Assembly (NCBI GenBank): GCA_016788315.1
Contig: JAEUSG010000385.1
Location: 1-29,832 of the forward strand
Source of the DNA: Fibrobacterota bacterium
Lineage (GTDB): Bacteria > Fibrobacterota > OXYB2-FULL-49-7 > JAEUSG01
DNA length: 29,832 bases
Reading direction: 5' to 3'
The translations under genes and the position numbers were made by a program. Below the pieces are notes generated by a model. The model saw nothing but the letters and a program-made list of their open reading frames with translations, was not told where the DNA came from and searched no databases. Below are positions 3,111-23,221 of this stretch, piece after piece (the stretch's first letter is position 1; the number at the start of each line of letters is the position of its first letter).

Positions 3111-4040
3111 TTAATCCTCAACTTTTTCCGGCGAAACAAAAAAGTCAGTTATTCTGTTAAGATCCGCCGTATCGGTATAATGGATAACAAGTTTGCCTTT
3201 GTCTTTATTACTGTTTTGTATTTCTATTTTTGTTCCGAACAGTTTTGTAAGTCTGTCTATAAGCTCCATCATGTCAGGATCAATATCTATGCTCTCTTTT
3301 TTCTTATCGGAGGGAGCCTTTGATTCTGAAACAAGTTTTTCAACCTGACGCACATTGAGATCTTCTGTTATTATTTTGTTAAGAAGCTTTGTCTGTGCTG
3401 TTTCATCGCCGGAAGCAAGGAGCGCTCTGGCATGACCCGAAGAAATTTTCTTTTCGCGTAAAGCTGTTTTTACATCGTCCGGCAGCTTTAAAAGGCGTAA
3501 AGTATTTGAAACAAATGAACGGCTCTTTCCTGTGTCTTCTGCAAGTTTTTCGTGAGTATAGTTATACTGAGCAACAAGCTCCTGATATCCGAGCGCTATT
3601 TCATAATCGTTGAGATCGCTGCGCATCTGGTTTTCAACCAATGCCAGAATCTGCATTTCTCTGTCTGAAACCTTATCGCGGATTACTGCAGGAATATCCT
3701 GCATGTTGAGAGCGCGGACCGCACGGAGTCTGCGTTCACCTGAAACAAGTTCGTAGCGTCCTTTTGATTTCCTGACAATTACTGGCTCAAGAACACCATG
3801 TTTAGCGATAGAATCTTTAAGTTCCTTAAGATCTTCTTCGTTGAACTCTTCGCGAGGCTGATAGGGATTGGCTTCAATCTCTGAAACGGGAAGGGTGAAG
3901 TATCCGCCGGTTTCGCGTGAAACTGTCTGCGACTGCGGTGGGAGAGGGCTCCGCTCCGTTTCGTGCATTTCTACCGCTTCTTCGGAGATAAGGGCTTTAA
4001 GCCCCCTGTGTAGCGCTAATCTCTTCTTTTTGTCCGTCAT
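3111..4040 (-). CDS. parB: Chromosome partitioning protein ParB/Spo0J.
   Basis: The N-terminus has the KKKRLALHRGLKALIS arginine-patch-like motif. A ParB-box/HTH region is present (GYQELVAQYNYTHEKLAEDTGKSRSFVSNTLRLLKLP). Its start overlaps the parA 3' end. Confidence 0.9.
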   Translation of the reverse strand: MTDKKKRLALHRGLKALISEEAVEMHETERSPLPPQSQTVSRETGGYFTLPVSEIEANPYQPREEFNEEDLKELKDSIAKHGVLEPVIVRKSKGRYELVSGERRLRAVRALNMQDIPAVIRDKVSDREMQILALVENQMRSDLNDYEIALGYQELVAQYNYTHEKLAEDTGKSRSFVSNTLRLLKLPDDVKTALREKKISSGHARALLASGDETAQTKLLNKIITEDLNVRQVEKLVSESKAPSDKKKESIDIDPDMMELIDRLTKLFGTKIEIQNSNKDKGKLVIHYTDTADLNRITDFFVSPEKVED

Positions 4041-4836
4041 CTGTTGCTGTCCTGTTTCTGTTTATGATTTCTTCGGCAAGCTGGAAATAGTCCTCTGCGC
4101 CCGATGAGACAATATCATAGGCAAGTATGGGTTCGCCCATGCTTGGAGCTTCCGAAAGTTTTACGTTACGTCGAACCGGTGTTGTGAAAACCTTTTCTTT
4201 GAAATAGTCGCGCACATCTTGAGCCACCTGTTTTGACAGGTTAAGACGCGCATCGTACATTGTCAATAAAGCCCCTTCAATCTGGAGCTGACTGTTAACT
4301 GTTTTCTGAACCGTTCTTACAGTTGAAAGAAGTTCTGCCAACCCCTCAAGAGCGAAAAACTCGCACTGAATTGGAATAAGAACAGAATCTGCAGCAGCGA
4401 GAGCATTAAGCGTCAGCAGGGAGAGGGAGGGGGGACAGTCGATTATTATGAAATCAAATCTGTTTTTTATCTTCTCCAAAGCCTGTTTCAGCTTATACTC
4501 TCGGGCGATCATTTTAAAAAGCTCATACTCAGCGCTGACAAGGTCATTGTTTGAAGGTATGATGTTTATATATTCGTTGACATTTGTATAAGAAGGTTTA
4601 ACGATGATTTGGTTGATTGTATCTTCGTCAAGTTCTTCTGTCAGAATAAAGTCATACACAGACTTTTCAACAGCCCGTTTATTAAGACCCATGCCGGTAG
4701 TTGCGTTTCCCTGAGAATCCATATCGATCAGGAGAGTGCGCTGCTCCAGCACAGAAAGTGAGGCTGCAAGATTTACGGATGTAGTTGTTTTTCCTACTCC
4801 GCCCTTTTGATTTACAACGGCAATTACTTTTCCCAT
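3997..4836 (-). CDS. parA: Chromosome partitioning ATPase ParA/Soj.
   Basis: The deviant Walker A motif KGGVGKTTTSVNLA is present, and the length and architecture are ParA-like. Confidence 0.9.
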   Translation of the reverse strand: MGKVIAVVNQKGGVGKTTTSVNLAASLSVLEQRTLLIDMDSQGNATTGMGLNKRAVEKSVYDFILTEELDEDTINQIIVKPSYTNVNEYINIIPSNNDLVSAEYELFKMIAREYKLKQALEKIKNRFDFIIIDCPPSLSLLTLNALAAADSVLIPIQCEFFALEGLAELLSTVRTVQKTVNSQLQIEGALLTMYDARLNLSKQVAQDVRDYFKEKVFTTPVRRNVKLSEAPSMGEPILAYDIVSSGAEDYFQLAEEIINRNRTATDDGQKEEISATQGA

Positions 4837-4873: not shown

Positions 4874-5458
4874 TCAAGAAATAATAAAAGAGGAGAGTGT
4901 TCTTTTCTGACCATTATCCAAGTTATAAACATAGTTATCCACATTTTTAACTTTTACTTTATGTTTTTTTTCTATTTCTTCTATCTCATTATTTAACAAT
5001 GTGTTAAACGTTATAACCTGACCCTCTTTTTTGAGTAATGATAAAGCGCTTTCAACAAATTGAACGTTTTCCTTAAAAGCCCGGGAAATTACGATATCTG
5101 CGAACTTTGAGAACTCGCCCATCTCTTTCTCAACCCTAACATTATGGACCTTAAGATTCTTTATTCCGCACTTACGGCAGACATGGTCAAGAAAGATTGT
5201 TCTTTTCTCTCTAGATTCAAATGCGTGAAATTGGCAGTCAGGTTTAGCAATAGAAAGCGGTATAACAGGAAATCCGTTTCCGCTGCCGATATCTGCTACA
5301 ATAGATTTTCCTGATATTTTAGAGGCGGCGGCAAGTGAATCCTGCAAGTGGCGCTCTTTGAGAAATGGGATATCGTTTCGGGAAACAAGGTTAACCCTGC
5401 TATTCCATTTTATGATCTCTTCGATATATACTTCAAATAAGGATTCAGCCTCTGCCAT
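4874..5458 (-). CDS. rsmG: 16S rRNA (guanine527-N7)-methyltransferase RsmG (GidB).
   Basis: The product shows GidB family similarity, including a SAM-binding GSGNGFP motif. It lies in the conserved gidA-gidB-parA-parB order. Confidence 0.85.
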
Positions 5459-7298
5459 ATTTCACCATTATCATTAGTACCTGAATATCAGCAGGGGAGA
5501 TACCAGAAATTCTAGATGCCTGACCTAGTGTTGCAGGACGAATTTTTGTTAGTTTCTGCCTTGCTTCAAGAGAGAGATTGTGAACTGTGTTGTAATCTAT
5601 TTCAACCGGTATTTTAGCATTTTCCTGTTTTTCAAAATCTTCAGCCAATGCAATTTCTTTAAGAAGATAACCCTCATATTTTGTGAGGATCTCCATCCGC
5701 ATCCATTCCTCTTCAGAATAGGAAAACTCCTTTCCCAAAATTGGACGAAGGTCCTGATTTGTAATATCAGGTCTTTTTAATAGTGCAAAAGCCTTCACGC
5801 TCTCTTTGAGCTCTGAAAATCCTCTTTCCGCTAATAGAGGGTTTATCTTATCCATTGAAACCTTCTTATTCTTCAGACGCTCAACACCGGCATATATTCT
5901 CTCAATCTTTGCTGTTTGCTTTTCATAGAACCCTTTATCTATTAACCCAAGGTCATGACCTTTTTTCAGGAGCCTTTCATCAGCATTATCCTGCCTTAAT
6001 AAGAGCCTGAATTCTGCTCTGGAGGTAAACATTCTATATGGCTCTTCGGTCCCTTTTGTAACCAGGTCATCTATAAGTACACCGATATATGCCTCTGACC
6101 TTTTTAGTACTAACGGCTCCTTACCTAGTATTTTCAAACAGCAATTTATAGCAGCCATCAAACCCTGAGCAGCAGCCTCCTCATAACCGGAAGTACCATT
6201 TATCTGTCCGGCAAAATATAGGGAGGGAATAATCTTGGATTCAAGAGTTGCATTTAACTGAGTAGGGGGGAAGTAGTCATATTCAATAGCATACGCAGGG
6301 ACTGATATTTCACAGTTTTCAAGACCTGGAATTGTGCGGAGAAGTTTTTGCTGAAAATCTGCCGGGAAGCAGTTTGAAAAACCGTTAAGATAAATATCGG
6401 GTAGATTGTATCCTTCAGGCTCTATGAACAGCTGGTGAGACTCTTTATCAGCAAAATTTATAAGCTTTGTCTCAATTGATGGACAGTATCTAGGACCTGT
6501 AGATTTTATGATCCCGGAAGCCATAGGGGAGAGGGCAAAGTTTTCTCTAATGAGTTTATGAGTCTCTTCCGTAGTTCTGGTGATGTAGCAGGGGAGCTGT
6601 TTTCTGTTAATCTCTTCAGTTCTATAAGAGAAAGGAGATGGAGGAAAGTCCCCCTGCTGTTCTGAAAGTTTTGAACAATCTATAGAACTTTGTTTAATTC
6701 TCGCCGGAGTACCTGTTTTAAGCCTGGCAGTTCTAACTCCCTTTGAAACAATACTTTCTGTAAGTCCTGTACTGTTTTTTTCACCTATTCTACCCGCTGA
6801 AATCTGTTCATTACCAATGTGGATAAGTCCGTTCAAAAAAGTGCCGCAACAGAGAATAACCCCTTTTGCGCTGTATTCTGAGCCTTTTTCTGTTTTTACC
6901 CCTGTGCATAACCCGCTCTTTTCATATATCAAAGAATTTACAGAATCTTCAATTATTTCAATACCAGAAAGAGAAGAGGCATACTTTGAGGCCTCTATCA
7001 TATATTCATCTTTATCTATTTGAGCCCTCGGACCCCACACTGCAGGACCCTTACTTTTATTAAGCATTCTAAACTGAATACCTGTTTTATCTGTAAGAAT
7101 TGCCATAATTCCGCCAAGAGCATCTATTTCACGAACCATATGCCCTTTTGCCAGACCACCAATAGCAGGATTACAGGACATCTTAGAAATTGCACTTTTA
7201 TTATGAGTAATTAGTAGTCCGGAGAGAGAAAACTTTGAAACTATGGTAACCGCCTCTAAAGCTGCATGACCACCGCCTACTATAATGACATCAACCAT
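5445..7298 (-). CDS. mnmG: tRNA uridine-5-carboxymethylaminomethyl modification enzyme MnmG (GidA).
   Basis: The N-terminal FAD-binding motif [15 protein letters not shown] is present. The 617-aa product has GidA-family similarity throughout. Confidence 0.9.
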
Positions 7299-7309: not shown

Positions 7310-7325
7310 TGTTTCACGTGAAACA
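7310..7325. promoter_or_regulatory. parS site (ParB-binding centromere). It is a perfect 16/16 match to the consensus TGTTTCACGTGAAACA.
   Basis: The sequence is tgtttcacgtgaaaca, a palindrome lying 12 nt upstream of the mnmG start codon. Confidence 0.8.
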
Positions 7326-7644
7326 TTCTATGTTTATGATCCTCTGTTATTTATCTGAAAAATACATTTTTTTGATATCTGTTATCGAGTGCTTAATTAT
7401 TGTTTTATCTGGCTTCGAGAGCCTCAGCCAGTTTTTTTCTTTTTGTCGGGCACTGAGCCTGTCGAAGTGCCGTTTTCCCAATATATACATCTGTTATCTC
7501 TAAGAAATCCTCTGGCTTCGACAAGCTCAGCCATCGGAGTAGTTATATTCTTTTTTACACTTTCTAGCACTTAAGGTCTCAAAGGGCCTGTTTCCTTATG
7601 CATATGCTGGCTTCGAGAGCCTCAGCCAACGGAAGAATTAAAAA

Positions 7645-7668
7645 GATCCATCTGTTATTTTTGTAAAA
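7645..7668 (+). repeat. 24-mer iteron-like motif, copy 1 (gatccatctgttatttttgtaaaa).
   Basis: This is a direct read. Related copies lie at 7754-7777, 7897-7920, 8038-8061, 8193-8216 and 8323-8346, with a degenerate copy at 7338-7362. Confidence 0.7.
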
Positions 7669-7692
7669 GATTGTTTTCTTCTCTCCCGTGCC

Positions 7693-7736
7693 CTGAGCGT
7701 AGCCGAAGGGCAATTTCTGGCTTCGGCTACGCTCAG
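7693..7736. repeat. Perfect 16-bp inverted repeat (stem-loop), built from two opposite-orientation copies of the 15-bp element.
   Basis: ctgagcgtagccgaag at 7693-7708 and cttcggctacgctcag at 7721-7736 are exact reverse complements, separated by a 12-nt spacer. Confidence 0.7.
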
Positions 7737-7753
7737 CCAGCGGGCATATTAAA

Positions 7754-7777
7754 GATCCATCTATTATTTCTGTAAAA
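7754..7777 (+). repeat. 24-mer motif, copy 2 (gatccatctattatttctgtaaaa).
   Basis: It matches copy 1 at 22 of 24 positions. Confidence 0.7.
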
Positions 7778-7896
7778 ACTTGTCTTTCTTTCGGGCCCTG
7801 AGGCTCTCGAAGAGCCAAATCCTCATTTTTTAGGATAGGTTTTAGTATCCCAAAATTTTTTATGCCTATTCTAGGGCTTCTTATGAGTTCAAAAAA

Positions 7897-7920
7897 GATC
7901 CCTCTGTTATTTTTGTAAAA
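7897..7920 (+). repeat. 24-mer motif, copy 3 (gatccctctgttatttttgtaaaa).
   Basis: It matches copy 1 at 23 of 24 positions. It is followed by a conserved tail, tattgcgtttttagcgtaatttcagc, shared with copy 6. Confidence 0.7.
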
Positions 7921-8037
7921 TATTGCGTTTTTAGCGTAATTTCAGCGTTTTATTATTTTAATATTTCTTCTTGTTCTTTTATTGATTTTCATTATTCCTT
8001 GCTGGCTTCGAGAACCTCAGCCAGCGGACAACATAAA

Positions 8038-8061
8038 TATCCATCTGTTATTCCTGTAAAA
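8038..8061 (+). repeat. 24-mer motif, copy 4 (tatccatctgttattcctgtaaaa).
   Basis: It matches copy 1 at 21 of 24 positions. Confidence 0.65.
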
Positions 8062-8192
8062 ACATGTCTTTCTCCCGGGCCCTGAGGTTCTCGAAGGGCC
8101 ATTTTCTGTTGGCTGAGCGTAGCCGAAACCAGTATTACTGGAAAAGATCTATTTGCTGGCTTCGAGAGCCTCAGACAGCTAAGAAGTAAAAA

Positions 8193-8216
8193 GATCCATC
8201 TGTTAATTTTGTAATA
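8193..8216 (+). repeat. 24-mer motif, copy 5 (gatccatctgttaattttgtaata).
   Basis: It matches copy 1 at 21 of 24 positions. Confidence 0.65.
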
Positions 8217-8322
8217 ATCAAAATTTGTCTTTCTTTAACTTTTATGAGCTCATTTTTCAAGATAGGTTTTGGTATCCCAAAACTTTTTAAGGCCATTCTA
8301 GGGCCTCTAATGAGGTCAAAAA

Positions 8323-8346
8323 GATCCATCTGTTATTTTTGTAAAA
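8323..8346 (+). repeat. 24-mer motif, copy 6 (gatccatctgttatttttgtaaaa).
   Basis: It is identical to copy 1. It is followed by the tail tattgcgtttttagcttaatttcagc, then parS site 2. Confidence 0.7.
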
Positions 8347-8389
8347 TATTGCGTTTTTAGCTTAATTTCAGCACTTTTTATTATCAATT

Positions 8390-8405
8390 TGTTTCACGTG
8401 AAACT
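8390..8405. promoter_or_regulatory. parS site 2, a 15/16 match (tgtttcacgtgaaact).
   Basis: It shares an identical 16-bp core (ttgtttcacgtgaaac) with site 1, which lies 1080 bp away. It sits between the repeat array and the DnaA-box cluster. Confidence 0.75.
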
Positions 8406-8479: not shown

Positions 8480-8634
8480 GCATGTTAAAAATGTTGATAA
8501 GTACATAAATGTTGATAAATCAATATCTTGCAATATCTAAATATTGTTGATAACTTTGATTATAAATGTTTATATCTTTTTGATAAAGATTGGTTTATAA
8601 ACATTGTGGATAAGTTCAATAGTTATAAACAAGA
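8480..8634. promoter_or_regulatory. Putative oriC core: a DnaA-box cluster plus an AT-rich unwinding region.
   Basis: Five co-oriented DnaA-box-like 9-mers are present: TGTTGATAA at 8492-8500, 8510-8518 and 8545-8553; TTTTGATAA at 8578-8586; and the perfect E. coli-type TGTGGATAA at 8605-8613. They are interspersed with very AT-rich tracts (ttataaatgtttatatcttttt) and lie immediately beside dnaA. Confidence 0.55.
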
Positions 8635-9936
8635 TTATTGGTCGATTATCAACTTTGTAATGTTGAAAACATCATTACTTACTGTCTGATCTTTTTCTAT
8701 CAATTTTTCAATAGTTTGACATCCATGAATAATAGTACTGTGATCTTTCATAAATATCTTACCAATACTTTTTAATGTTGAATTAGTCATTTTCTTAGAA
8801 AGGTACATAGCCATCTGCCGAGGAATTACATTCTCTTTTTCGCGGCTTCCCTTAATAATCTTTTCTTTGGATGTCTTATAATATTGTGCAACTTTATCTA
8901 CTACCTCTTCCACGTATACCTTCTTCATACCGGAATCATTTTTAAAACTCAATATTTCTACAGCTTTTGTATAATCGACATCAACATTATACATAGAAGA
9001 ATATGCCAGAATTTTAATCAGGTATCCTTCCATTTCCCTAATATTACTTGAAGCATTCCTTGCAATGTACTCAATAACATCTTCAGATATATTCAACTGA
9101 TTTTTTGTAGCCTTCTTATGAAGTATTGCTACTTTGGTTTCAAAGTTTGGCGGTTGAATATCAACGGTTAACCCAGACTGAAATCTTGAAACAAGTCTAT
9201 CCTCAAGGCCATCAAGATCTTTTGGGATTTTATCACTTGTAATTACAATCTGTTTCTTGGAAAGAAAAAGGTCATTAAAAATGTGAAAAAAGACCTCTTG
9301 AGTTCCCTGTTTCCCCGAAAGGAATTGAATATCATCCATTAACAGAAGATCACAGTTTTTATAAAGAATACTGAATTCGTCGCTTTTTTTCTGTTCTATG
9401 AACTTTATGTATTCATCAACAAATTGAACAGAGCTGGTATAAACGACATTAGCCTTTTGATTTGAGGCTAAAACATGATTTCCTATAGCCTGCAAGAGAT
9501 GTGTTTTACCTAAACCGCTCTTTCCATATATAAAGAGGGGATTAAATTTGGTCGCGCCGGGTGTTCCTGCAACTGCAAAAGCAGCAGAATGGGCAAATTC
9601 ATTGTTTTTTCCTACAATAAAGCTGTCAAAATTGTAGTCTTTGTTGAGATTTGTTTTAAGCCTATTGTTTTTAAGTGTGTCAGCTATATTGAGATCAGAC
9701 TCAAATTTTACTACCAGGCTCTTTCCGGAGAGCTTTGCGACTGTTTCACATATGACATCGCTGAACTTATCTTCTAGGAAATGTGAATGAATTTCTCCTT
9801 TTGAGGTTAAAAGGACTATCTCAGAATTACTGATATCCTTAACTCTTAAAGGTTCAATCCAGGTTTTGTAGCTTTCTGCGGGAATCTGGCTGCTTATTTC
9901 AATAAGGCAGTTATTCCAAAAAGATTGTATATCCAT
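8635..9936 (-). CDS. dnaA: Chromosomal replication initiator DnaA.
   Basis: AAA+ Walker A (GKSGLGKTHLLQAIGN) and the C-terminal DnaA DNA-binding domain are present. The likely true start is the ATG at 9934-9936 (MDIQSFWNNC...), which has AGGAGA about 13 nt upstream. The ORF-track N-terminal extension to 10041 overlaps rpmH and is unlikely to be real. Confidence 0.9.
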   Translation of the reverse strand: MDIQSFWNNCLIEISSQIPAESYKTWIEPLRVKDISNSEIVLLTSKGEIHSHFLEDKFSDVICETVAKLSGKSLVVKFESDLNIADTLKNNRLKTNLNKDYNFDSFIVGKNNEFAHSAAFAVAGTPGATKFNPLFIYGKSGLGKTHLLQAIGNHVLASNQKANVVYTSSVQFVDEYIKFIEQKKSDEFSILYKNCDLLLMDDIQFLSGKQGTQEVFFHIFNDLFLSKKQIVITSDKIPKDLDGLEDRLVSRFQSGLTVDIQPPNFETKVAILHKKATKNQLNISEDVIEYIARNASSNIREMEGYLIKILAYSSMYNVDVDYTKAVEILSFKNDSGMKKVYVEEVVDKVAQYYKTSKEKIIKGSREKENVIPRQMAMYLSKKMTNSTLKSIGKIFMKDHSTIIHGCQTIEKLIEKDQTVSNDVFNITKLIIDQ

Positions 9937-10025
9937 AAGTTTAGTTTTATCTCCTAGGTTGAAAATAATTATTTTAGCAAACTCTCTAAGTACATATAAA
10001 AGAAGAAAAAGAAAGGGATTATTAA

Positions 10026-10175
10026 ATGCGTCAGCAGACACTCAACAGAACATCCAACAAGAAGCGGACAACAAAACACGGTTTCCGTAAGAGAATGAAA
10101 ACAAAGAACGGCAGAAAAGTTCTTGCTAACAGACGTAAAAAGGGACGTAAGAAGTTAACAGTTTCTGACGAATAA
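10026..10175 (+). CDS. rpmH: 50S ribosomal protein L34.
   Basis: I translated this by eye. The 49-aa product is [49 protein letters not shown], which matches the L34 family (KRTxxHGFRxRMxTKxGRxVLxxRRxKGRKxL). It is absent from the ORF track because it is under 60 aa. Confidence 0.85.
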
Positions 10176-10723: not shown

Positions 10724-12508
10724 ATGTTTAATAAAAATTTCATAATAGCCTTTGCTCTGATTTTCGCCTCATTTGTTTTCTTCAACGGCGATTTCTGGAA
10801 TTATAAAATTCTTGGCAAAGAGAAGCCTGTACCGGCTTCCGCTGCTCCTGCTGCTGAAAAGTCTGTAAAAACACACACATCAGCTCCGGCGGAAATAAAA
10901 GAGACGACTGAGAACAAGTTAGCTCCTGTTGATTCTACCGTTCTATCTGTAGATTCATTGAAACAATTATCAAAAACAATTATCGTCAGCAATGGTCTTT
11001 ACACGGCAAGAATATCAACATATGGAGCTATTGCTACCGCCTGGTCTATTCCGGAGTATAAGGATTTTAAGGGCAAGACTTACAACCTCGTTTCAGATAC
11101 TGCTCTGGGTATTTTCAATCTTGAGATTGAAGGCGTCGATTTTGATAAAACTCTTTTTACAACAGATGCCCCTGATTCTCAATACATAACAACAGAAACA
11201 AGCATCTCATTTAAAACGGTCACGCTGGAAGGGAAAACTGTTGAGAAAGTATTTACATTCAGACCTAAAGCATATGATATAACAGTAAAACTTAGCAGTA
11301 CAGATAATATTAAAGGGAAATATCAGTTTGGATGGAAGGGTGGAATCAGAGAGAGTGAAAAAGATGTTGACACCAAACTAGCAGATCAATCTCTCACCTT
11401 TTACCTAGGCGGGGAAGAGGATGATGTTGACAGACCGGTTGAAAATGACGATACTGCAAAAGATGTAGAAGGGTTGCTTAAATGGGCATCTTTAAGATCA
11501 AAATATTTCAGTGGAACTTTTGTCCCAGATTCTGTTGGAGATTTTACAGTATATACGAGAAAGATTGCAAAAACTGAAGAGTCAGGGAATCCTTTAAATT
11601 TTTCATTAGTATATGAGGGCAGACTGGAACAGGGCAGTGCTCTTTATAAAGTAATTTTAATTCCTAGCAGACATTCAATTCTTACGTCATATAATATTCA
11701 GTTAGAAAAAATATTGTTTAAAGGGTATGCAGTATTCTTTAAGGCAGACATCTGGTTTCCAAAACTCTGCGGTCTTCTTTTAACTCTTCTAAATTATTTC
11801 TATGGATTAATTCCAAATTATGGAATTGCAATTCTCCTCCTTACTTTGCTTACGAAAATAGTTACGCTTCCGTTGACGATCAAAAGTACAAGATCGATGG
11901 CCCGAATGAAGCTGATGGCTCCGAAAATTAAGGTCATACAGGAAAAGCATAAAGGCGATCCGATGGCTCAGCAGCAGGCCATGATGAAGATGTACAAGGA
12001 TGAGGGGATCAGTCCACTTGGGGGAGCGGGTGGCTGTCTACCAATGATCCTTCAAATGCCTATTTTCATCGCATTGTTTGTTGCACTTCGAAAGGCGATA
12101 GAGCTTCGCGGCGCTGATTTTGCTTTTTGGATACATGACCTTTCAGCACCTGAGGTCCTTGTAGCTCTGCCATTCAGCATACCATTTTTCGGGGCTCATC
12201 TTTCACTGCTTAACATAATTATGGCTGTCAGTATGTTCTTTCAGAGTAAGCAGACAATGACCGGAAACGATCCGAACCAGAAGATGATGGTTTATTTCAT
12301 GCCTGTAATGATGTTCTTTATGTTCAATAACATGCCGGCAGGACTTCTCCTCTATTGGTCTTTAAGTAATATTTTGGGTATTGCTCAGAATTTTTTCATT
12401 AAATTCGATCCCGAAGAATTGAAAAAAGATACTGTTAAAAAGAAGAAAAGTCTTTGGGGCAAAAAGCCATCCTACAATGAAATTCTCAAAAGGATGGGTA
12501 AGAAATAA
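10724..12508 (+). CDS. yidC: Membrane protein insertase YidC.
   Basis: An N-terminal TM segment and a large periplasmic domain are present. The C-terminal YidC/Oxa1 core has conserved motifs (LLTKIVTLPLTIKSTRSMARMKLMAPKIKVIQEKHKGDP...MYKDEGISPLGG). An AGGAGT Shine-Dalgarno sequence lies upstream. Confidence 0.9.
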   Translation: MFNKNFIIAFALIFASFVFFNGDFWNYKILGKEKPVPASAAPAAEKSVKTHTSAPAEIKETTENKLAPVDSTVLSVDSLKQLSKTIIVSNGLYTARISTYGAIATAWSIPEYKDFKGKTYNLVSDTALGIFNLEIEGVDFDKTLFTTDAPDSQYITTETSISFKTVTLEGKTVEKVFTFRPKAYDITVKLSSTDNIKGKYQFGWKGGIRESEKDVDTKLADQSLTFYLGGEEDDVDRPVENDDTAKDVEGLLKWASLRSKYFSGTFVPDSVGDFTVYTRKIAKTEESGNPLNFSLVYEGRLEQGSALYKVILIPSRHSILTSYNIQLEKILFKGYAVFFKADIWFPKLCGLLLTLLNYFYGLIPNYGIAILLLTLLTKIVTLPLTIKSTRSMARMKLMAPKIKVIQEKHKGDPMAQQQAMMKMYKDEGISPLGGAGGCLPMILQMPIFIALFVALRKAIELRGADFAFWIHDLSAPEVLVALPFSIPFFGAHLSLLNIIMAVSMFFQSKQTMTGNDPNQKMMVYFMPVMMFFMFNNMPAGLLLYWSLSNILGIAQNFFIKFDPEELKKDTVKKKKSLWGKKPSYNEILKRMGKK

Positions 12509-12664: not shown

Positions 12665-15600
12665 TTGAAAAAGTTAGGATTTCTTCTATTTTTTGCCGTT
12701 TTCTGCTATTCAGCAGATTCTACGCACGTATTCTGGAATAAATGTGTAACTAACGGCTATTCAGTTTCATCCAATCCAGGTCCAAATCTGCCTTCCGTTT
12801 CTGTGAAACATGAAGGAATGGTAGCAACAGGCTCATATGATGTTTCGGGGAACTTCGTTAATACAGAATTTAGTCTGGGTTCAGGCCATTATGATAACAG
12901 AGGTAAAAGTTCATTTGTCTGGTTTAAAGATCTCAACCATTTACAGGGAACAGTAACTACTGCAAAACTCAGAGGAGAATATAAAGACGGCTTTTCAGAT
13001 ACAGCATTATGCAGCAATGGCCCCATCTCTCTTCGGGTTGGTATTGTTGATTTTTCACAGAACCTGAATATGATGGGTGGTGAAAGCGGAGTGCCGGAAA
13101 ATGCGGTATGGCAGGATTATGATAATCGCCTGCAGTACGATATGTCCTATTCAAATGGTTTTACAGGACTAATGGCAGAAGACAGTGTAAACATCTCAGC
13201 GTTATCCGGACGGAGCGGCAGATTTATCCGCAGCGTTCTTGATAAACAGTTTTTTGAAATTGATGTTACAAAACAGATCAATTGGATTCTTTCACACACC
13301 GGTTCAAATAAGGGGGGATTCAGCGGTCAATATGCAATTGTATTGCTTTCACCGGTAGGTAAAGGTAGCACTGGCAGGGTAACTCTATACAGTACCGAAG
13401 ATGGCATTTTAGGACCATCTGAAGAGGGGAGTGATTCGGCGTGGACCTCTGATGGAAACACAATCCATCTAGTTGCATCAGGAAATCTCATTCCAGCTGC
13501 CCCGGATACCTTACCCGGGTTCATTTTTGACGTTTGGAACGATGCTGATTCAGCAGCAGTTACTGTAGGTTTAAACAATTTCAAAAAGACAGTAGATTCT
13601 ATCTTTGTTTACAGAGATAGTATATTAATTCATCAACAAAAAAATGAATTCTACCGCATATGGGATGTAAACACCTCTATTTACAAAAATGCTTTTTACA
13701 CTCTTGCCATAAAATATACTGACGCATCAACAGATACATTTTTCAAATATTATAGGGCATATATACCATCCTTTAACGGGTGGTTTAGAAATGACATTCG
13801 CAGAATAGTTATTGATTGGGGATTTTCAGGAGCAAGAACAGATAGTTATGAATTATTCAGAGACGGGGTTAAACTAGGATCTTTTCCAGATTCTGTTCGT
13901 TCATTTACTGATAACGGAGCGGATCCATATCAGGATCACAGATATAAAATGGTCTTTCATTTTGTAAACAATGGGAGAACGGATTCAATTTTTTACAACT
14001 ATCAGGCTGCCATGGCACCGGAACCGGAACTTTGGTGCGGAAACACCTCTCTTCTTCAGACAATGATGTCGGGTAAAGGGGTTGTATATAAACAGAGATA
14101 TAGCACACACCATCGAAATGTAACATCAGTTTCTCTTCCATTTACCATTCCATCCTTTGAGGGAGGAATTTACATAACAGGAAACATAGATTCTATCGGT
14201 TTTGATACTTTGGTTGCTATCGCAGCATACGATACCTGCAGTCATCTTCCCATTTATAAATCTGGACAGGACAATATTGTTTTTGCAGCACTCGATGATA
14301 TAAGCTGGCTTCGCGGTCCTACAATGTGGACCTGGTTTAATCATGCAAGTAAACTTCCATTTGTCAACTGGAATAATGTTCACAAACCAGTAAAGTTTTA
14401 TACGATTTATAGAGATGGAGTTTATGCAGGAACTCCATCGATAAATGATATGCAGTATGCGGATACAACGGCTGATATTTATACAGATCATAATTATCAG
14501 ATGATCATAACATATCAGGACTTTTCTACAGACACATTGAATGCATTATACTCAAGACAGACTCCTCCACAGCCCCAGCCATATTGCGGATCTCCATCTG
14601 TTGCCGGAAATGTTATTTCCACCAAGGGACTGCTATGCCGAATCGGTGGGGATTCACTGTTTCGCCAGGTAACAAATCCAGGGGTACCATTCCCTGCTCC
14701 GAAATCTCCAATGCATACATTGGTTGTGGGTAAAGTTGATTCCATTACGGATACGCTAGTAATTCTCGGGAAAGGGGATAGCTGCGGTTCGCTCTTTTTA
14801 TCAAACGGTAAAGCGGTTGCTGCAAAGTTAAATGAATATAATTACATCCGTGGAGTACAATTCTGGGCTTACTATGATAACTGGCCGAAAAAGGTTAGAG
14901 TTGACTGGACTGGGATAGGTAAATCTGTTAACTACTATGAAATACTCAGAAATTCGGTTAGAGTTGCAACATTTCCAGGCGTTAATGGAACAGGATGGAT
15001 TGACACAGCAGTAAGCCCATATGCGAATTACACGTACAGATTGCGCGTCTTTTTTATGGATTCGACAGCAGATAGCGCTGATGCAGATTATAAGGCAGTT
15101 GCGATTCCTCCTCCTGCTCCATTCTGCGGAACACGGACAGAAGCGCAGAATAGTGTCAATTCAAGAGGGATAACCTGTATTTCAAACCATGATTCACTTT
15201 TGCAGAATGTTTCAATTGCCGGACCTGTATTTCCTGCTCCGAAATCTCCTTCAAATTATTTGATACCTGGAAAAATAGGAACAGCTTCAGACACCTTTGT
15301 AATCCTTGGAAGTGGTGATTCATGCGGTAAGCTTCATTTTGCAAAAGATAGCAAACAGGCCGTAGCAAGGCTTAATGAATACAGCTATATCAGAGGGCCG
15401 ACATTGAATGTATGGTATCATGATGGGATGCAGGTTGTAAAGATTCAGTGGAATGGGATAGGAGGATCTGTTGATTATTTTGAACTTCTGCGCGATGGAC
15501 AGACAATAGTCAGCAATTATAACGGAACATGGAATTATGATGACTATTCAGCGGATGCATTTACAAATCACACATATCTTTTGCGCATATTTAAGAGCGG

Positions 15601-18600
15601 AGTTGCCATAGATTCCTTGACCGCTGGCTATATGGCTAAAAACCCTTATCAGAATCCTGTTGTGTGGTGCGGTTCACCAGGAATTCTGCAGGATACACTA
15701 TCAAGACATGGATCATCGCTTCGTGTACATTGGGATACGTTGCCCATACCTGTTTCAAGAGTGGATAATCCATTTTCAAACAGTAAATATCCTGGTGCAG
15801 TGCTGATGCTGGGTGAGTGGTTTGATAAGGAAAAGAATGTTACAGTAACAGATACAATGGTGGCAATGGGAATTAATGGAAAATGCGCAAGTTTGATAAT
15901 GAGTAAAACAAGTGCAGCATATTTTTGGAGGCTTAAAGACTGCTATATGCTTCAACCTCCCTATTTCTCAGCCTGGTGGCAGCAGGATTCCGGTTTTATA
16001 AGAGTTGAATGGGGAAATTTCAAGCGGCCGGTTGAAGGGTATGTTCTTTACAGGGATACAACGAGAATATATAGCGCTACCGGTACAAATGTCTGGCATT
16101 TCTTTGACAGATCCGGAGTAAAAGAAAATAATTATCAGTATAAGATTCTTGTAAACTACCAGGATTCGACCTCTGAATGGTTTTATGCCAACTACAGCAA
16201 TCAGGGAGGAAACACAGGAAAAGAGATGCCGCCGATCTACTGCGGTACAGATGCTATGCTAACGGCTGCTTTAGCAGGAAAAACGGTGCAGTTCATTGTG
16301 CCGTGGGATTCAGCAGCCAGACCTTTTACCAGAAGCAGCAACCCTTTTCTGCTGCAGGGAACTTCAAATGTTTGGGCTCTCTTAGGAAAAGAGGGCAGCA
16401 ATACGTATTCGGATACTTTTCTCGCTTTAGGCAAAATTGGAACGTGTTCGGATCCTCTTTTTTCTAAAGATATGAAGTCGGTTGTCTTTGCAAGAATTCA
16501 GGAATATCCATTCATCCGTGGACCTAGACTGATGTCATGGTTTTTCTACGACAGCAACTGTGTCTCACTTAACTGGGGCGGATTTCAGGGTACAGTAACT
16601 ACCGCTACACTTTTCAGGGATAATCAGTTTGTTAAATCATTTCCTGGAAGTTCTACATTCTATAATGATTATATGACTGATCCGTCGATAAAACATCTCT
16701 ATGTTCTTATAGTAAAGACAGGAACATCAACAGACACACTATACTCTAATTACAGTAAAGATGGGGACGGCGGCGGAAGTGGAGGAGGCCGTGATTTTAA
16801 TTTTGACGGTAAATGGGGATATGAAGGCTCATATACCTTTAACTTGATGAAAATGACAGGCAACAAGGCAGATTCCGGTAAAAGCGGATATGTTTACAGA
16901 TGGGGTATAAAGAAAGAATCCGTTATAATTGATTCTGTAACAAGACTCCTTCAGACGCCGGTAACGTTTAATGTTTCGTTCAGAAAAATTACTGATGCCT
17001 CTTTTATAAACCTGTTATCATTTTCTGTCAAAAAGGCAGACAGCTGTTATGGATACAATGTGAAGGATACAGTTTTCGGCATAGGAATATATCAGAAAAG
17101 AGTTATTGTTGTAGCTGGGGCAGAAATAGACACTATTTATAATTACTTTACATCAGGAGTAGCAGTTCCGGTCAGCTTAAACAATGTCATATCAATAAAC
17201 CTTTCAAAAATTGCGTCAGTTAATCTTGGAACAAAGAGTACGGCTTTTATAAGCAATTATTCAGAGGATGGAAAATTGCTTCCTGCACCATCCGGGAACA
17301 TGCTGACCTTCAGCCACACTGTGCCGAATGTTAATACTATTTACAAAACAATAAGCTATATAGCAGATGGTCTCCCGTTCGGTCTTATCCTTATGGCTAG
17401 CGGAACTCTTGAAGGGGGTCAGAAAACGCTTTCAGCAGGTCCTGCTAAAGAGGATGGATATGTAACCTTTGACGGGACAGTCAGAATGGAAATTGAAGGA
17501 GAAGGCATACCAAAGAGCGCTTCGGATATGCAGCAATCCGGCAGACAGGATAAAATTCTTTTCTCTTCACTGAGGATATATTCCGGTTCTATGATGGACA
17601 CAGTAAAGCTTCCTCTTGACTCAGGAAAGGTAACATTCAATTCCGGACCCGATCATGCAGGCAAGCGTATCAGTATAAAGGGTATTGATACACTCCTTGG
17701 TATTACAGTTGATGCGCCAGCCGGTCGTGTATTCCATATTGGTGCCTCTGATAAGAGTGTTGTTGGCATAACTAACGGAACGGAGAGTCGATACTATACA
17801 GTTGCTGCAGCGGTTATGGCAGGAGAAAAAACAATTAAACTGCCTGCGGCTGAATATAAGGGAATGCCCATTGCGCTTTATCAAATGGCGGGCATCACAA
17901 TAACAGGTGAAATACAGGGAGAGAAAAAGACTTTAATAGATGCTGATGGAAATGATGCCGGTATATGGCTCAAGGAGGTTGCATCAATAGGAATCAGAGG
18001 AGTATCAGTTCGTAAAGGGAATGTTTCGCTTTCTGCGAATACAGTAAGCGGTATTACATTTGCACAGTGCAGAGTAACAGGCTCGCTTAACGGAGTAGTA
18101 ATATTTGCTCCTGAAGGAGATTCTTTTTCAACACTCAGCCCTAAAACAAAAAATTGCACAATAGAAAACTGCGTTGCTGACAGTATTGCCGGATTTGCCT
18201 TTCTTATAGATAGACCTGTTGATTGCCGTATTGCTAATAATACGGTTGTATCGGCCGTATACGGAGCATATATGGGCCGTGGTGGCAATAGTCGAAAGGT
18301 TTCATTGCCTCTTACCGGTAATACAGCGTCAAATAATATATTCCGAAATTGCAAAGCCGGTTTTGTTCAAGGACTTGATAACAGCATGGACAACATAGGT
18401 TTTACTTATAACGCAAATATATTCCAAAGCTGTGACAGCGGAGCCTTTTCATCAAGTTATACTACTGATCCAGTTTTCCGCACAGTTAGACAGAGTGCTC
18501 CTGCCGGGTGCATTGAAATTGCTGCAAATGAAAATTCAATATCTGCATCTTTCCCGTATATACCCGTTATTGGCAGTTCAGTTCATGATAAAGGTCTTAG

Positions 18601-20230
18601 AACTTCAATGTCGCCTTTAACAGATTTTAGAGGAAGTCCTCGTGTATTGTCAAATTCTTTGGATATCGGTGCCTTTGAACTTTTCGATCTTAGAATGGGC
18701 TTCAATCTTCTAGCTAAAAGAGCGGCAGAAGGCTGTGCCTTTGTCCGGTACACTCTTACTGCACCCGATTCAGGATCCTTTACACAGGTGCAGATGGTTT
18801 TAAAGAAAGATGGTGCTGCTTTTACATCCGGAAAAACAATGCTGGAACAGATGAGTAACAGTACTGTTGTCACCTGGTATCCTCTTGTTCAAGGTTCCTA
18901 TCAATTTGATTTCTCTACAAGATATACATCAACAATGTTTGATACCACATTTACATTAAGCGATACTTTTTCAGTGCAGAACGATGCTTATGTTGTTAAA
19001 GGCGGCCTGTGGAACATGGTTGGTTATGCCGATGCATCGAATACAAAAGTAAAACAGGAGAGCGCAATATCCGCTCTCTCTGATTCCTCTCTTTACGTTT
19101 GGGATCAGACGACAACCTCATACTCCCTTCTTTCATCACAGCCAGATACTTTAGTGCACCGGGGCAGCAGCTATTGGAATATGCCAGATTCAGATGTGAC
19201 TATATCATGGGCACCTGAGGTTTACAGTGCACCGGACACATCCGATTTTATACTCAACCTTAAAGCCGGCTGGAATCTTGTAAGTTCTCCTTTTCCATTT
19301 GCCGTAGCAGTTCCAGGAAAGAAGTTCTGGCACTACGATAACATTTTGGCAGACTACAGAGGATACGATCTTCTGCGTCCCCTTGCCGGAAGCTGGATTC
19401 TTGCAGACAGCAACACTGCAATAACAGTCAAATACAAACCGGGATTCGGAGATACAGCTTTTGCAGCAAAGATTTCGGGAGTTCAGTACAGGAGTTCCTC
19501 CGATTGGTCTATTGCTTTGTTGGCAAATGTAGCTGGTAAAAATCTGGAAGGAAGAATTGCAGGTGTTTCATCTGAAGCAAAAGGATTGCTGGAACCTCTT
19601 CCTCCAATCGGTCCATCAGGTGTTTCTGTCTGGTTCCAGAACGGGAAAGCAGCTGGAGTAAATGCGAAGCTCTTTAAAGAATTGAAAAAGCCTGATAACG
19701 AAAACTATGAATGGATTTTTGTTGTAGAGCCTTCTGGAAGAAAAGGAGAGGTTACAATCAGCGGTGATGGAATAAAGGAACTGGAAGCATTCAAATACGT
19801 TTATGTGGGCAGTCCATCTACAGGCTTTACAGATATAAAGCAGGGTTCTCATACATTTAATTCCGATGGAAAAAGAACAGCTCTTGCACTTATAGTAACA
19901 AATGACAAAGGGATAATGGACAGATATACAGCGGACTTCTCTCTAGCTCAGAATACGCCCAACCCCTTTAACCCTATAACATCAATCTCTTTCTTTGTGC
20001 CGATGTCCTGGGATACAAAAGAGGGTTTCATTTCAAAGGAAAGAACGGTAGAGCTCTCTATTTATGATATAAGAGGAAAGAGAGTTGCTACTCTTTCGAG
20101 AGGTCAATTAGCCGGCGGGAAAATGTATACCGTCAACTACGATGCTAAAAACAGCCCTTCAGGAGTATATTTCTGCAAGCTCGTTTCCGGTAAATATGAA
20201 AGCACCAGAAAGATGCTTCTTGTAAGGTAA
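12665..20230 (+). CDS. Giant (~2521 aa) secreted modular protein with a T9SS C-terminal sorting domain. It has a signal peptide, a ~450-aa N-terminal region, five tandem ~180-aa modules (each a Cys-containing subdomain plus an FN3-like domain), a Gly linker, a right-handed parallel beta-helix (pectate-lyase-like) region and the CTD.
   Basis: It uses a TTG start with a strong GGAGGGAGA Shine-Dalgarno sequence 6-8 nt upstream. The signal peptide is MKKLGFLLFFAVFCYSADS. Tandem modules are marked by (W/Y/F)CG(S/T/N) plus IRGP plus W..G......Y.L.RDG motifs. PbH1-like repeats are present (NNTVVSAVYG..., NNIFRNCKAGF...). The C-terminus (NPFNPITSISF...ELSIYDIRGKRV...SGVYFCKL...TRKMLLVR) fits the T9SS type-A CTD pattern. 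Confidence 0.8.
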   Translation: MKKLGFLLFFAVFCYSADSTHVFWNKCVTNGYSVSSNPGPNLPSVSVKHEGMVATGSYDVSGNFVNTEFSLGSGHYDNRGKSSFVWFKDLNHLQGTVTTAKLRGEYKDGFSDTALCSNGPISLRVGIVDFSQNLNMMGGESGVPENAVWQDYDNRLQYDMSYSNGFTGLMAEDSVNISALSGRSGRFIRSVLDKQFFEIDVTKQINWILSHTGSNKGGFSGQYAIVLLSPVGKGSTGRVTLYSTEDGILGPSEEGSDSAWTSDGNTIHLVASGNLIPAAPDTLPGFIFDVWNDADSAAVTVGLNNFKKTVDSIFVYRDSILIHQQKNEFYRIWDVNTSIYKNAFYTLAIKYTDASTDTFFKYYRAYIPSFNGWFRNDIRRIVIDWGFSGARTDSYELFRDGVKLGSFPDSVRSFTDNGADPYQDHRYKMVFHFVNNGRTDSIFYNYQAAMAPEPELWCGNTSLLQTMMSGKGVVYKQRYSTHHRNVTSVSLPFTIPSFEGGIYITGNIDSIGFDTLVAIAAYDTCSHLPIYKSGQDNIVFAALDDISWLRGPTMWTWFNHASKLPFVNWNNVHKPVKFYTIYRDGVYAGTPSINDMQYADTTADIYTDHNYQMIITYQDFSTDTLNALYSRQTPPQPQPYCGSPSVAGNVISTKGLLCRIGGDSLFRQVTNPGVPFPAPKSPMHTLVVGKVDSITDTLVILGKGDSCGSLFLSNGKAVAAKLNEYNYIRGVQFWAYYDNWPKKVRVDWTGIGKSVNYYEILRNSVRVATFPGVNGTGWIDTAVSPYANYTYRLRVFFMDSTADSADADYKAVAIPPPAPFCGTRTEAQNSVNSRGITCISNHDSLLQNVSIAGPVFPAPKSPSNYLIPGKIGTASDTFVILGSGDSCGKLHFAKDSKQAVARLNEYSYIRGPTLNVWYHDGMQVVKIQWNGIGGSVDYFELLRDGQTIVSNYNGTWNYDDYSADAFTNHTYLLRIFKSGVAIDSLTAGYMAKNPYQNPVVWCGSPGILQDTLSRHGSSLRVHWDTLPIPVSRVDNPFSNSKYPGAVLMLGEWFDKEKNVTVTDTMVAMGINGKCASLIMSKTSAAYFWRLKDCYMLQPPYFSAWWQQDSGFIRVEWGNFKRPVEGYVLYRDTTRIYSATGTNVWHFFDRSGVKENNYQYKILVNYQDSTSEWFYANYSNQGGNTGKEMPPIYCGTDAMLTAALAGKTVQFIVPWDSAARPFTRSSNPFLLQGTSNVWALLGKEGSNTYSDTFLALGKIGTCSDPLFSKDMKSVVFARIQEYPFIRGPRLMSWFFYDSNCVSLNWGGFQGTVTTATLFRDNQFVKSFPGSSTFYNDYMTDPSIKHLYVLIVKTGTSTDTLYSNYSKDGDGGGSGGGRDFNFDGKWGYEGSYTFNLMKMTGNKADSGKSGYVYRWGIKKESVIIDSVTRLLQTPVTFNVSFRKITDASFINLLSFSVKKADSCYGYNVKDTVFGIGIYQKRVIVVAGAEIDTIYNYFTSGVAVPVSLNNVISINLSKIASVNLGTKSTAFISNYSEDGKLLPAPSGNMLTFSHTVPNVNTIYKTISYIADGLPFGLILMASGTLEGGQKTLSAGPAKEDGYVTFDGTVRMEIEGEGIPKSASDMQQSGRQDKILFSSLRIYSGSMMDTVKLPLDSGKVTFNSGPDHAGKRISIKGIDTLLGITVDAPAGRVFHIGASDKSVVGITNGTESRYYTVAAAVMAGEKTIKLPAAEYKGMPIALYQMAGITITGEIQGEKKTLIDADGNDAGIWLKEVASIGIRGVSVRKGNVSLSANTVSGITFAQCRVTGSLNGVVIFAPEGDSFSTLSPKTKNCTIENCVADSIAGFAFLIDRPVDCRIANNTVVSAVYGAYMGRGGNSRKVSLPLTGNTASNNIFRNCKAGFVQGLDNSMDNIGFTYNANIFQSCDSGAFSSSYTTDPVFRTVRQSAPAGCIEIAANENSISASFPYIPVIGSSVHDKGLRTSMSPLTDFRGSPRVLSNSLDIGAFELFDLRMGFNLLAKRAAEGCAFVRYTLTAPDSGSFTQVQMVLKKDGAAFTSGKTMLEQMSNSTVVTWYPLVQGSYQFDFSTRYTSTMFDTTFTLSDTFSVQNDAYVVKGGLWNMVGYADASNTKVKQESAISALSDSSLYVWDQTTTSYSLLSSQPDTLVHRGSSYWNMPDSDVTISWAPEVYSAPDTSDFILNLKAGWNLVSSPFPFAVAVPGKKFWHYDNILADYRGYDLLRPLAGSWILADSNTAITVKYKPGFGDTAFAAKISGVQYRSSSDWSIALLANVAGKNLEGRIAGVSSEAKGLLEPLPPIGPSGVSVWFQNGKAAGVNAKLFKELKKPDNENYEWIFVVEPSGRKGEVTISGDGIKELEAFKYVYVGSPSTGFTDIKQGSHTFNSDGKRTALALIVTNDKGIMDRYTADFSLAQNTPNPFNPITSISFFVPMSWDTKEGFISKERTVELSIYDIRGKRVATLSRGQLAGGKMYTVNYDAKNSPSGVYFCKLVSGKYESTRKMLLVR

Positions 20231-23078: not shown

Positions 23079-23221
23079 AAAAACGCTCCTTGAAAGAATT
23101 GCCGGAAAAATCGTACAATACAACTGTTATATGATTTTAAGTTAAACTAAAAGAACTTAAAATTCCTGTAAAATACGAACCAAAACATGTAAGAAAAGTA
23201 CAAAATGGTTTTATCTATTAA

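Follow-up and report, generated by a model that had tools for sequence, protein, structure and literature searches.

Beside the putative replication origin of a Fibrobacterota bacterium, in the non-coding stretch that separates mnmG from dnaA, sits an array of short repeats with a parS site at either end. The window in which we studied it is a complete 29.8-kb contig of a metagenome-assembled genome (MAG), filed as 'Fibrobacteres bacterium'. It is tempting to make such an array part of the origin. Most likely it is selfish repeat DNA instead. Its main components are hairpins of two classes, Y and Z, that belong to a multi-copy family dispersed in many bacterial phyla. Members of the family flank, and so are physically tied to, a highly conserved gene for a single-domain GIY-YIG protein of ~100 aa. 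We think it probable that the array is a lineage-specific mosaic of these nuclease-associated hairpin repeats, housed in a dispensable spacer.

The hairpin pattern CTGAG-N5-6-CGAA occurs 11 times within positions 7414-8174 and nowhere else in the window, for which 0.44 copies would be expected by chance. A first-pass annotation of this DNA had counted 11 copies of one 15-mer. The count stands, the single sequence does not: 4 of the 11 are exactly CTTCGAGAGCCTCAG, the others being core variants (GTTCT, CCTGT/CTTGT and a 16-nt CGTAGC type). The forward and reverse forms of the element it described lie where it put them, recast here as hairpin classes which, read on the + strand, are CTGG-CTTCG-core'-CTCAG-CCAG for Y and GGGCC-CTGAG-core-CGAAG-GGCC for Z. 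Aligned segments of the array give a unit of ~108 nt that runs Y, CGGAnAA, a 24-mer, TTGTCTTTCT, Z. There are four copies of this unit, the last truncated, and their content is heterogeneous; a fifth doublet, at 7406-7472, has no 24-mer. Interspersed with them are two copies of a composite (C-module, 24-mer, tail), which form the ~140-bp duplication that had already been noticed (7822-7962 versus 8249-8388, 86-87% identity, families D9 and D10). The copy abutting the second parS site has an ortholog in the closest relative, L002 (loci outside the window carry L numbers).

Y and Z hairpins come with matched complementary cores: CGTAGC at 7693/7721, GTTCT at 8006/8082 and GCTCT at 7611/7798, the last of these nested around another pair. 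A doublet can therefore fold in two ways, into a pair of small hairpins or into a single long one of ~-40 kcal/mol. As DNA, single hairpins fold at -3 to -8 kcal/mol. The long fold of 7670-7750 reaches -40.7 kcal/mol (z -6.4) and that of 7996-8105 reaches -34 to -41 kcal/mol.

Hairpins this stable, in units that all point the same way, could be taken for tandem small-RNA genes or for a structured leader on the mnmG mRNA, the 24-mer serving as promoter or operator. There is even a T-run after the first Y hairpin (7432-7446), and dnaA, the array and mnmG share a strand, so that read-through transcripts would carry the hairpins. The expected signals are missing, however. Sigma-70-like promoters number 4 against 5.0 expected, with none in the 24-mers, and terminator-like sites 2 against 1.1. 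A TAnnTTTG element in the 24-mer was considered as a Bacteroidota-type promoter and rejected, given that it lies upstream of no gene in the window, where genes show TTGACA/TATAAT-type signals; neither scan thus leaves the 24-mer with a recognizable promoter. Rfam, searched at gathering thresholds and at E up to 10 with the window and 18 related loci, returned nothing relevant. The content of the units varies, a promoter, conserved RNA and terminator in each of them was not found, and G-T and A-C mismatches are about equally frequent in paired cores, with no clear strand bias. The small-RNA promoter/terminator units of the first-pass annotation are thus not borne out, and we regard small-RNA genes or a leader as very unlikely.

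What points to repeat DNA is the distribution of the hairpins beyond the window. We scanned one genome per species with the pattern CTGGCTTCG-N5-6-CTCAGCCAG, which specifies 18 bases, and found at least 120 loci. About 35 chance matches would be expected over the whole collection, a figure extrapolated from a viral scan in which a 16-base hairpin pattern gave 48 single matches, the level of chance. Among the listed loci a few are chance matches in genes of high-GC genomes, and ~100 conform to an extended consensus, cGCTGGCTTCGAC..GCTCAGCCAGCg. Their hosts are Cyanobacteria, Chloroflexota, Gamma- and Alphaproteobacteria, Bacteroidota, Chlorobiota, Calditrichota, Balneolia, Gemmatimonas, Desulfobotulus and another Fibrobacteres MAG (L123). 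A single MAG contributes up to 10 contigs to the at least 120 loci, and the complete Altericista chromosome has hairpin sites at 2.26 and 5.33 Mb, 3 Mb apart. In all, the 120 listed loci hold 286 copies of the motif in 825 kb.

Most elements are doublets, in which an inverted partner lies 13-60 nt away and the cores match with 0 or 1 mismatch. The stems that close the hairpins are self-complementary yet lineage-specific (GACA/TGTC, TCCC/GGGA, TTCC/GGAA, GTGG/CCAC and others), which is covariation. Core classes are few. The GCTCT/GTTCT class of the window is found mainly in Bacteroidota and Desulfobotulus, and the CGTAGC class mainly in Cyanobacteria. Mosaic or tandem arrays of Y and Z hairpins also occur away from any origin, at L067, L069, L094 and L124, the hosts being Desulfobotulus, Pseudomarimonas, a Chlorobiota MAG and a Cyclobacteriaceae MAG. 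The tandem arrays at L069:1540-2130 and L094:1900-2790 are long: Desulfobotulus has ~14 copies of a 44-nt unit, and in Pseudomarimonas 24-nt Z hairpins stand in tandem, alternating with a Y hairpin in units of 182-251 nt. Among the interpretations offered at first pass, the evidence favors the nest of miniature palindromic elements, the hairpins lying at many unrelated intergenic sites in many genomes. An origin-specific array is, for the hairpins, largely refuted by those sites and by relatives without the array; the 24-mer, by contrast, was found nowhere else.

The second line of evidence is the company the hairpins keep. When all 2,125 open reading frames (ORFs) of the 120 listed loci were clustered, their neighbors proved diverse, and a single family recurred next to the hairpins, at a distance of 0-36 nt. 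It consists of small GIY-YIG proteins (PF01541), whose genes have hairpins on either side and come from a cyanobacterium, a cyanobacterial MAG, a Gemmatimonas MAG and a proteobacterial MAG. Loci that combine gene and hairpins are L132:6700-7700, L134:600-1600, L145:900-1950, L165:650-1700, L182:1250-1810 and L186:1250-2150. Searching from the GIY-YIG protein, and so independently of the hairpins, gave 5,126 proteins at E <=1e-10. The best 120 of these 5,126 are 79-100% identical across Cyanobacteria, Geobacter, Methylomonas, Sulfuricella, Halomicronema, Gemmatimonas and others. Although ~100 aa make up the core of the protein, 95 of the 120 have a length of at least 110 aa. Their tails are telling: 85 of the 95 contain a translated Y hairpin (GFDSAQP), 67 a translated Z hairpin (RSLSGVEGN) and 91 one or the other, so many database entries owe their extra length solely to an ORF that continues into the hairpins. 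Homologues of 102 aa also have hairpin flanks, seen at the DNA level (L182, L184, L186). In two phyla the gene and its hairpins form a cassette between hsdM and hsdS of a type I restriction system (L165:880-1560, L145:900-1950), and at L165 a ~38-nt copy of the 3' end of hsdM (gagattcaggcggggatgaaagagcttgagg) stands on both sides of the cassette with a few mismatches. The family matches PF01541 in Pfam and nothing in NCBIfam; among solved structures, those closest to it are the UPF0213 proteins 1ZG2 and 1YWL. By analogy with Ssn/SRM and RAYT/REP, both described below, we infer that the nuclease would recognize the hairpins as single-stranded DNA and drive their spread or maintenance.

A third line of evidence comes from the same spacer in relatives, a comparison the first-pass annotation had itself proposed. 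In L002, a noisy assembly from a different sample with a DnaA 96% identical to that of the window, the layout is the same: mnmG, parS, array, parS, oriC, dnaA. The two ends and one Z-Y doublet can be aligned, and the middle holds other hairpin modules. Between its 24-mers (L002:1670-1920) lie two copies of GCTAATCTCGATA...GATTAGC, plus AAGGACGTCGG...CCGGACGTCCTT, neither of which is in the window. At 85% (L001) and 82% (L004) DnaA identity the oriC-side parS is kept and the 24-mer does not exceed chance, in contigs that end 375-556 nt past that parS. Beyond the parS of L001 (6310-6609) a palindrome, GGGCAATTCATGAATTGCCC, is followed by TTTACGAAAAAAGG, twice, with GGCTGACC repeats in addition. 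At 61-63% identity (L005, L007) the spacer between dnaA and mnmG shrinks to ~250 nt, with one parS directly before mnmG. Since the array is absent or recomposed in relatives, it does not count among the conserved parts of either the origin or the machinery of segregation. The oriC-mnmG site tolerates insertions and perhaps attracts them.

Repeats in a contig from a MAG invite the suspicion of an assembly artefact, a collapsed or chimeric repeat, the more so when the contigs of L001, L003 and L004 all stop at or near this spacer or just past it, as assemblers commonly do at repeats. L002, though, is an independent assembly from another sample with the same overall architecture, and the window reads through both flanks of the array into conserved genes. 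We consider an artefact extremely improbable.

The least explained part of the array is the 24-mer, GATCCATCTGTTATTTTTGTAAAA. It is present in six copies with at most 3 mismatches, all on the + strand, that start at 7645, 7754, 7897, 8038, 8193 and 8323, where chance would give 0. Degenerate copies at 7338-7372 and 8142-8155 and relics at 7377-7385 and 7488-7497 add to these. The seven co-oriented copies of 24-29 nt reported at first pass are therefore real and correctly placed, as six good copies and two to three degenerate ones, and so are the shorter relics it had seen near 7378 and 7490. Spacing from start to start is irregular, at 109-155 nt. The 24-mer sits both within Y-Z doublets and in the composite that adjoins the second parS. 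Y-Z spacers of other phyla do not generally contain it, and across these phyla an ATAACA spacer motif shows no enrichment either, and among the loci compared it is confined to the window and L002. Its simplest reading is as a local sequence trapped between hairpins and multiplied with them; a binding function is possible.

The 24-mers might instead be the point of the array, with the hairpins as passengers: an accessory origin or segregation array that offers sites to a nucleoid protein, a ParB-cooperating protein or a replication-control protein, or that acts as AT-rich unwinding elements. All of them are co-oriented and limited to the parS-bracketed spacer beside the DnaA boxes, they appear in no other collection or context scanned, and L002 keeps them although the sequence between copies has changed. 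At 96% identity L002 is too close for such retention to be a sign of constraint, however, and in relatives at 61-85% DnaA identity, two of them with the ~250-nt spacer, the 24-mer is not found beyond chance. The iteron-like or ParB-cooperating array of the first-pass annotation finds no support in the same facts: a spacing of 109-155 nt, absence at 61-63% DnaA identity and recomposition at 96%. Its analogy between the GATC of the 24-mer and methylation-sensitive sequestration sites proved weak, GATC occurring 119 times in the window against 108-132 expected. The core CATCTGTTATTTT (7650-7661, 8328-8339) resembles the 13-mer consensus of E. coli oriC, GATCTnTTnTTTT, and GATCCATCTGTTA the IHF consensus WATCARnnnnTTR; we treat both as no more than leads. 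Descent of the 24-mer from the native oriC flank, with its E. coli 13-mer-like element, was rejected, since 383 of 500 shuffles score as high, and ATCTNTTNTTTT has only 3 copies in the window against 0.56 expected. The scanned metagenome collection evidently did not contain the source lineage, as it did not return L002, so the absence of the 24-mer elsewhere counts as weak evidence. With no matches elsewhere, the origin-specific idea is, for this module, unsupported rather than refuted, and we think an accessory origin array unlikely.

Several observations weigh against our preferred reading, a mosaic of nuclease-associated repeats in a dispensable spacer. When viral and metagenome collections were scanned for the 24-mer pattern, the only matches were single chance ones within unrelated genes; a sequence found nowhere else could be locus-specific and functional. 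Solitary doublets show no clear signal of target-site duplication. No further Y or Z copy turns up in the remaining 28 kb of the window or in ~60 kb from relatives, and tblastn, run on the window only, finds no GIY-YIG gene there. Nuclease activity and mobility of the Y/Z family are argued from analogy. Finally, L006 (DnaA 63%) also has two parS sites, with an insert of ~610 nt between them (11560-12200) that is unrelated in sequence, about 50% GC, and yields neither an Rfam match nor an informative ORF. An insert bracketed in this way could be owed to the site and not to the repeats.

The tight link between Y/Z hairpins and the GIY-YIG family also admits a functional alternative, in which the array would be a target cluster for a single-strand-specific nuclease, modulating recombination or DNA uptake near the origin. 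Neisseria provides the precedent, such a role having been proposed for its NTS clusters: in the Ssn system, repeats of this type are concentrated near certain genes and influence transformation (Chenal et al. 2025, Nat Commun, PMC11893778). Here, though, the window lacks the nuclease gene, the published SRM motif of that system has no match, and the composition of the array shifts fast between close relatives. We judge such a role decidedly unlikely.

How, then, might a repeat mosaic have come to lie beside an origin? In our preferred reading the building block would be a doublet of ~100 nt, consisting of a Y hairpin, a spacer and an inverted Z hairpin with complementary core. Doublets that carried the local 24-mer in their spacer may have been amplified through insertions together with unequal recombination among the repeats, which would have left 4 to 5 head-to-tail units and the 140-bp duplication. 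The repeats would have accumulated in a dispensable spacer between two parS copies beside oriC. Any local effects are likely incidental: extrudable hairpins beside oriC, and ~1.1 kb between two ParB loading sites. For the window this removes a tempting but unsupported idea of an origin or segregation array, and it makes the oriC-mnmG spacer a tolerated sink for repeat DNA. The hairpin module also led to something larger, a repeat family that is very widespread and nearly always accompanies one highly conserved small GIY-YIG gene; neither the motifs nor their translated artefacts turned up in a paper in the literature searched, where papers on GIY-YIG proteins and repeats dealt mostly with fungal mitogenomes, and Rfam has no family for them. 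Read-through of Y and Z would explain common spurious ORF tails in annotation (GFDSAQP..., RSLSGVEGN...).

The genes parB, parA (the two at 3111-4836), rsmG and mnmG (5445-7298) follow one another on the - strand, and 1,336 nt of non-coding DNA separate mnmG from dnaA (8635-9936, - strand), beyond which rpmH/rnpA/yidC lie on the + strand. A homology search identifies the DnaA of the window as the 433-aa protein P0001; the dnaA ORF at 8635-10041 starts at GTG (468 aa), whereas the database protein starts at 9936. The window has only two parS sites, 7310-7325 and 8390-8405, defined by the 16-bp palindrome TGTTNCACGTGAAACA, near oriC and with parAB nearby, so the block is indeed bracketed by parS as the first-pass annotation had it. 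Four DnaA boxes with at most 1 mismatch, all on the - strand, start at 8492, 8510, 8545 and 8605, and the GC skew changes sign, or has its minimum, near 9-10 kb. On these grounds a stretch of ~230 nt, bounded by dnaA and by the parS at 8390, is the putative oriC. There is no integrase in the window, and a tRNA/tmRNA search found none. Two very large proteins, of 2,521 aa (12665-20230) and 947 aa (20280-23123), have a C-terminal Por_Secre_tail as their sole recognizable domain; this is a sorting domain of type IX secretion and fits an organism of the Fibrobacteres-Chlorobi-Bacteroidetes group.

The block itself has no credible coding capacity, as was seen at first pass: its ORFs are all 79 aa or shorter, read through repeats and give no coding signal. 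One of 38 aa (MSSFFKIGFGIPKLFKAILGPLMRSKRSICYFCKILRF) at 8244-8360 covers C-module copy 2 and 24-mer copy 6. It is probably not a gene, because in the other copy the frame is disrupted and the differences between copies are non-synonymous. The components of the array are collected in Table 1.

Table 1. Components of the repeat array and its borders, in window coordinates
Feature	Position	Strand	Basis and remarks
parS-1 (TGTTTCACGTGAAACA)	7310..7325	.	exact; 12 nt upstream of mnmG start codon; position of the lone parS in L005, L007
Degenerate 24-mer copy 0 (GATCCTCTGTTATTTATCTG...)	7338..7372	+	family D7, 72-75% identity to other copies
ATCTGTTAT relic	7377..7385	+	direct reading of sequence
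Y1 hairpin CTGGCTTCGAGAGCCTCAGCCAG, T-run after it (7432-7446)	7409..7431	.	DNA fold -5.9 kcal/mol
Z1 hairpin, core CCTGT	7447..7472	.	doublet with Y1, no 24-mer (unit 0)
24-mer relic (CATCTGTTAT)	7480..7508	+	family D3
Y2 hairpin, core complementary to CTTGT	7512..7534	.	pairs with Z1 at 93%, inverted repeat I10
Y3 hairpin, unit 1 start	7607..7629	.	repeat and motif analysis
24-mer copy 1	7640..7669	+	repeat and pattern search
Z2 hairpin, 16-nt CGTAGC core	7688..7713	.	perfect 16-bp stem with Y4 (I4), -40.7 kcal/mol, z -6.4
Y4 hairpin, CGTAGC core, unit 2 start	7717..7740	.	repeat, motif and fold analysis
24-mer copy 2	7749..7778	+	repeat and pattern search
Z3 hairpin, GCTCT core	7793..7816	.	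complementary to Y3 across nested unit (I1)
C-module copy 1 (CTCAT...ATGAG)	7822..7890	+	family D9, 86% identity; weak fold, z -1.2
24-mer copy 3 and tail (ATTGCGTTTTTAGCG...)	7892..7962	+	family D10, 87% identity
Y5 hairpin, core complementary to GTTCT, unit 3 start	8002..8024	.	DNA fold -8.2 kcal/mol
24-mer copy 4	8033..8062	+	repeat and pattern search
Z4 hairpin, GTTCT core	8077..8100	.	core 100% complementary to Y5 core (I7); fold -34 kcal/mol
Z5, a Y-type hairpin in inverted orientation, CGTAGC core	8110..8132	.	I2, 96% complementary to Y4
Partial 24-mer (AAAAGATCTATTTG)	8142..8155	+	family D6
Y6 hairpin, truncated unit 4 start	8156..8178	.	repeat and motif analysis
24-mer copy 5	8188..8217	+	repeat and pattern search
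C-module copy 2	8249..8317	+	family D9; fold z -3.5 on both strands; orthologous to L002
24-mer copy 6 and tail, abuts parS-2	8318..8388	+	colinear with L002
parS-2 (TGTTTCACGTGAAACT)	8390..8405	.	1 mismatch; kept beside oriC in L001, L002, L004
DnaA-box cluster, putative oriC (context, outside array)	8492..8613	-	four boxes, at most 1 mismatch

Set beside known systems, the array works like a BIME, NIME or SRM cluster, with a sequence family that is not in the sources searched. Iteron arrays are built of direct repeats of 17-22 bp in helical phase, spaced about 11 or 22 bp apart. Like them, and like the 13-mers of E. coli oriC and the GATC sites of SeqA, the 24-mers are co-oriented direct repeats beside an origin, each with a GATC; unlike iterons they are 109-155 nt apart and are not kept in relatives, and GATC is enriched only as part of the repeat. 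Integron attC sites and CALIN elements (RYYYAAC / GTTRRRY) are no match, GTTRRRY being absent from either strand of the array against a shuffle mean of 2.8.

REP, BIME and REPIN sequences, with their RAYT transposases, are known from E. coli and Pseudomonas. The array is built as a BIME is: short imperfect palindromes in alternating orientation, joined by conserved linkers into intergenic mosaics. Its inverted doublets, which collapse into one long hairpin, and its fast turnover between relatives recall REPINs. The differences lie in the details. None of the 11 hairpins has a GTAG/CGTC foot tag, GTAG occurring solely inside the CGTAGC core variant. Y/Z hairpins have one sequence in common to several phyla, whereas REP sequences are usually lineage-specific. 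The gene that recurs beside them encodes a GIY-YIG protein, the only recurrent immediate neighbor in the clustering of the 2125 ORFs, on part of which Pfam was run; no Y1 (HUH) transposase recurred there. NIMEs of Neisseria are units of 50-150 bp flanked by dRS3 repeats (PMC11893778). Their likeness to the array is that of a non-coding mosaic with units of ~100-150 bp between short inverted hairpin repeats, but dRS3 (ATTCCC-N8-GGGAAT) is not in the window, and phylum and sequence family are others.

The closest parallel is the Ssn/SRM system, in which small single-domain GIY-YIG proteins (cd10448) cut single-stranded DNA beside the hairpin repeats NTS and SRM. SRM repeats flank the nuclease gene and occur in hundreds of copies, clustered, mostly intergenic and across phyla, and its authors point to a likeness to RAYT, REP and BIME (PMC11893778). 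Y/Z hairpins share the essentials: a small single-domain GIY-YIG gene with hairpin repeats on one or both sides (L132, L134, L145 and L165, and at the DNA level L182, L184 and L186), repeats that are multi-copy, mostly intergenic, clustered and found across phyla, and a repeat and a nuclease that appear to co-vary. What sets Y/Z apart is a conserved interior of 15-16 nt (CTGAG...CGAAG), doublets with complementary cores, a nuclease whose nearest structures are UPF0213, and a window that itself lacks the gene. The published SRM pattern (HGTCWY-N0-2-YYVSBRH-N0-5-WNVSBRG-N0-2-RNCYNB, from the Methods of PMC11893778), which recognized the NTS control, matches nothing in the window, and nothing at a distance of up to 60 nt from any Y/Z hairpin in the 120 loci; we therefore count Y/Z as a further, new family of the Ssn/SRM kind. 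A bolder proposal, to which we hold only tentatively, is that Y/Z doublets and the UPF0213-like GIY-YIG gene form a second cross-phylum nuclease/hairpin-repeat system, distinct from Ssn/SRM in its motif and perhaps in its GIY-YIG subfamily and mobile-cassette-like, for which the palindromic parS near oriC was a preferred landing site here. Examples of such mobility would be the cassette found between hsdM and hsdS in two phyla, as well as nuclease proteins that keep 80-94% identity from one phylum to another, and a preferred landing site would explain the parS on both sides of the insert, in which case ParB loading or origin topology could be altered. If the nuclease is a site-specific single-strand DNase like SsnA, the Ssn/SRM principle would extend to a new motif and to many more phyla.

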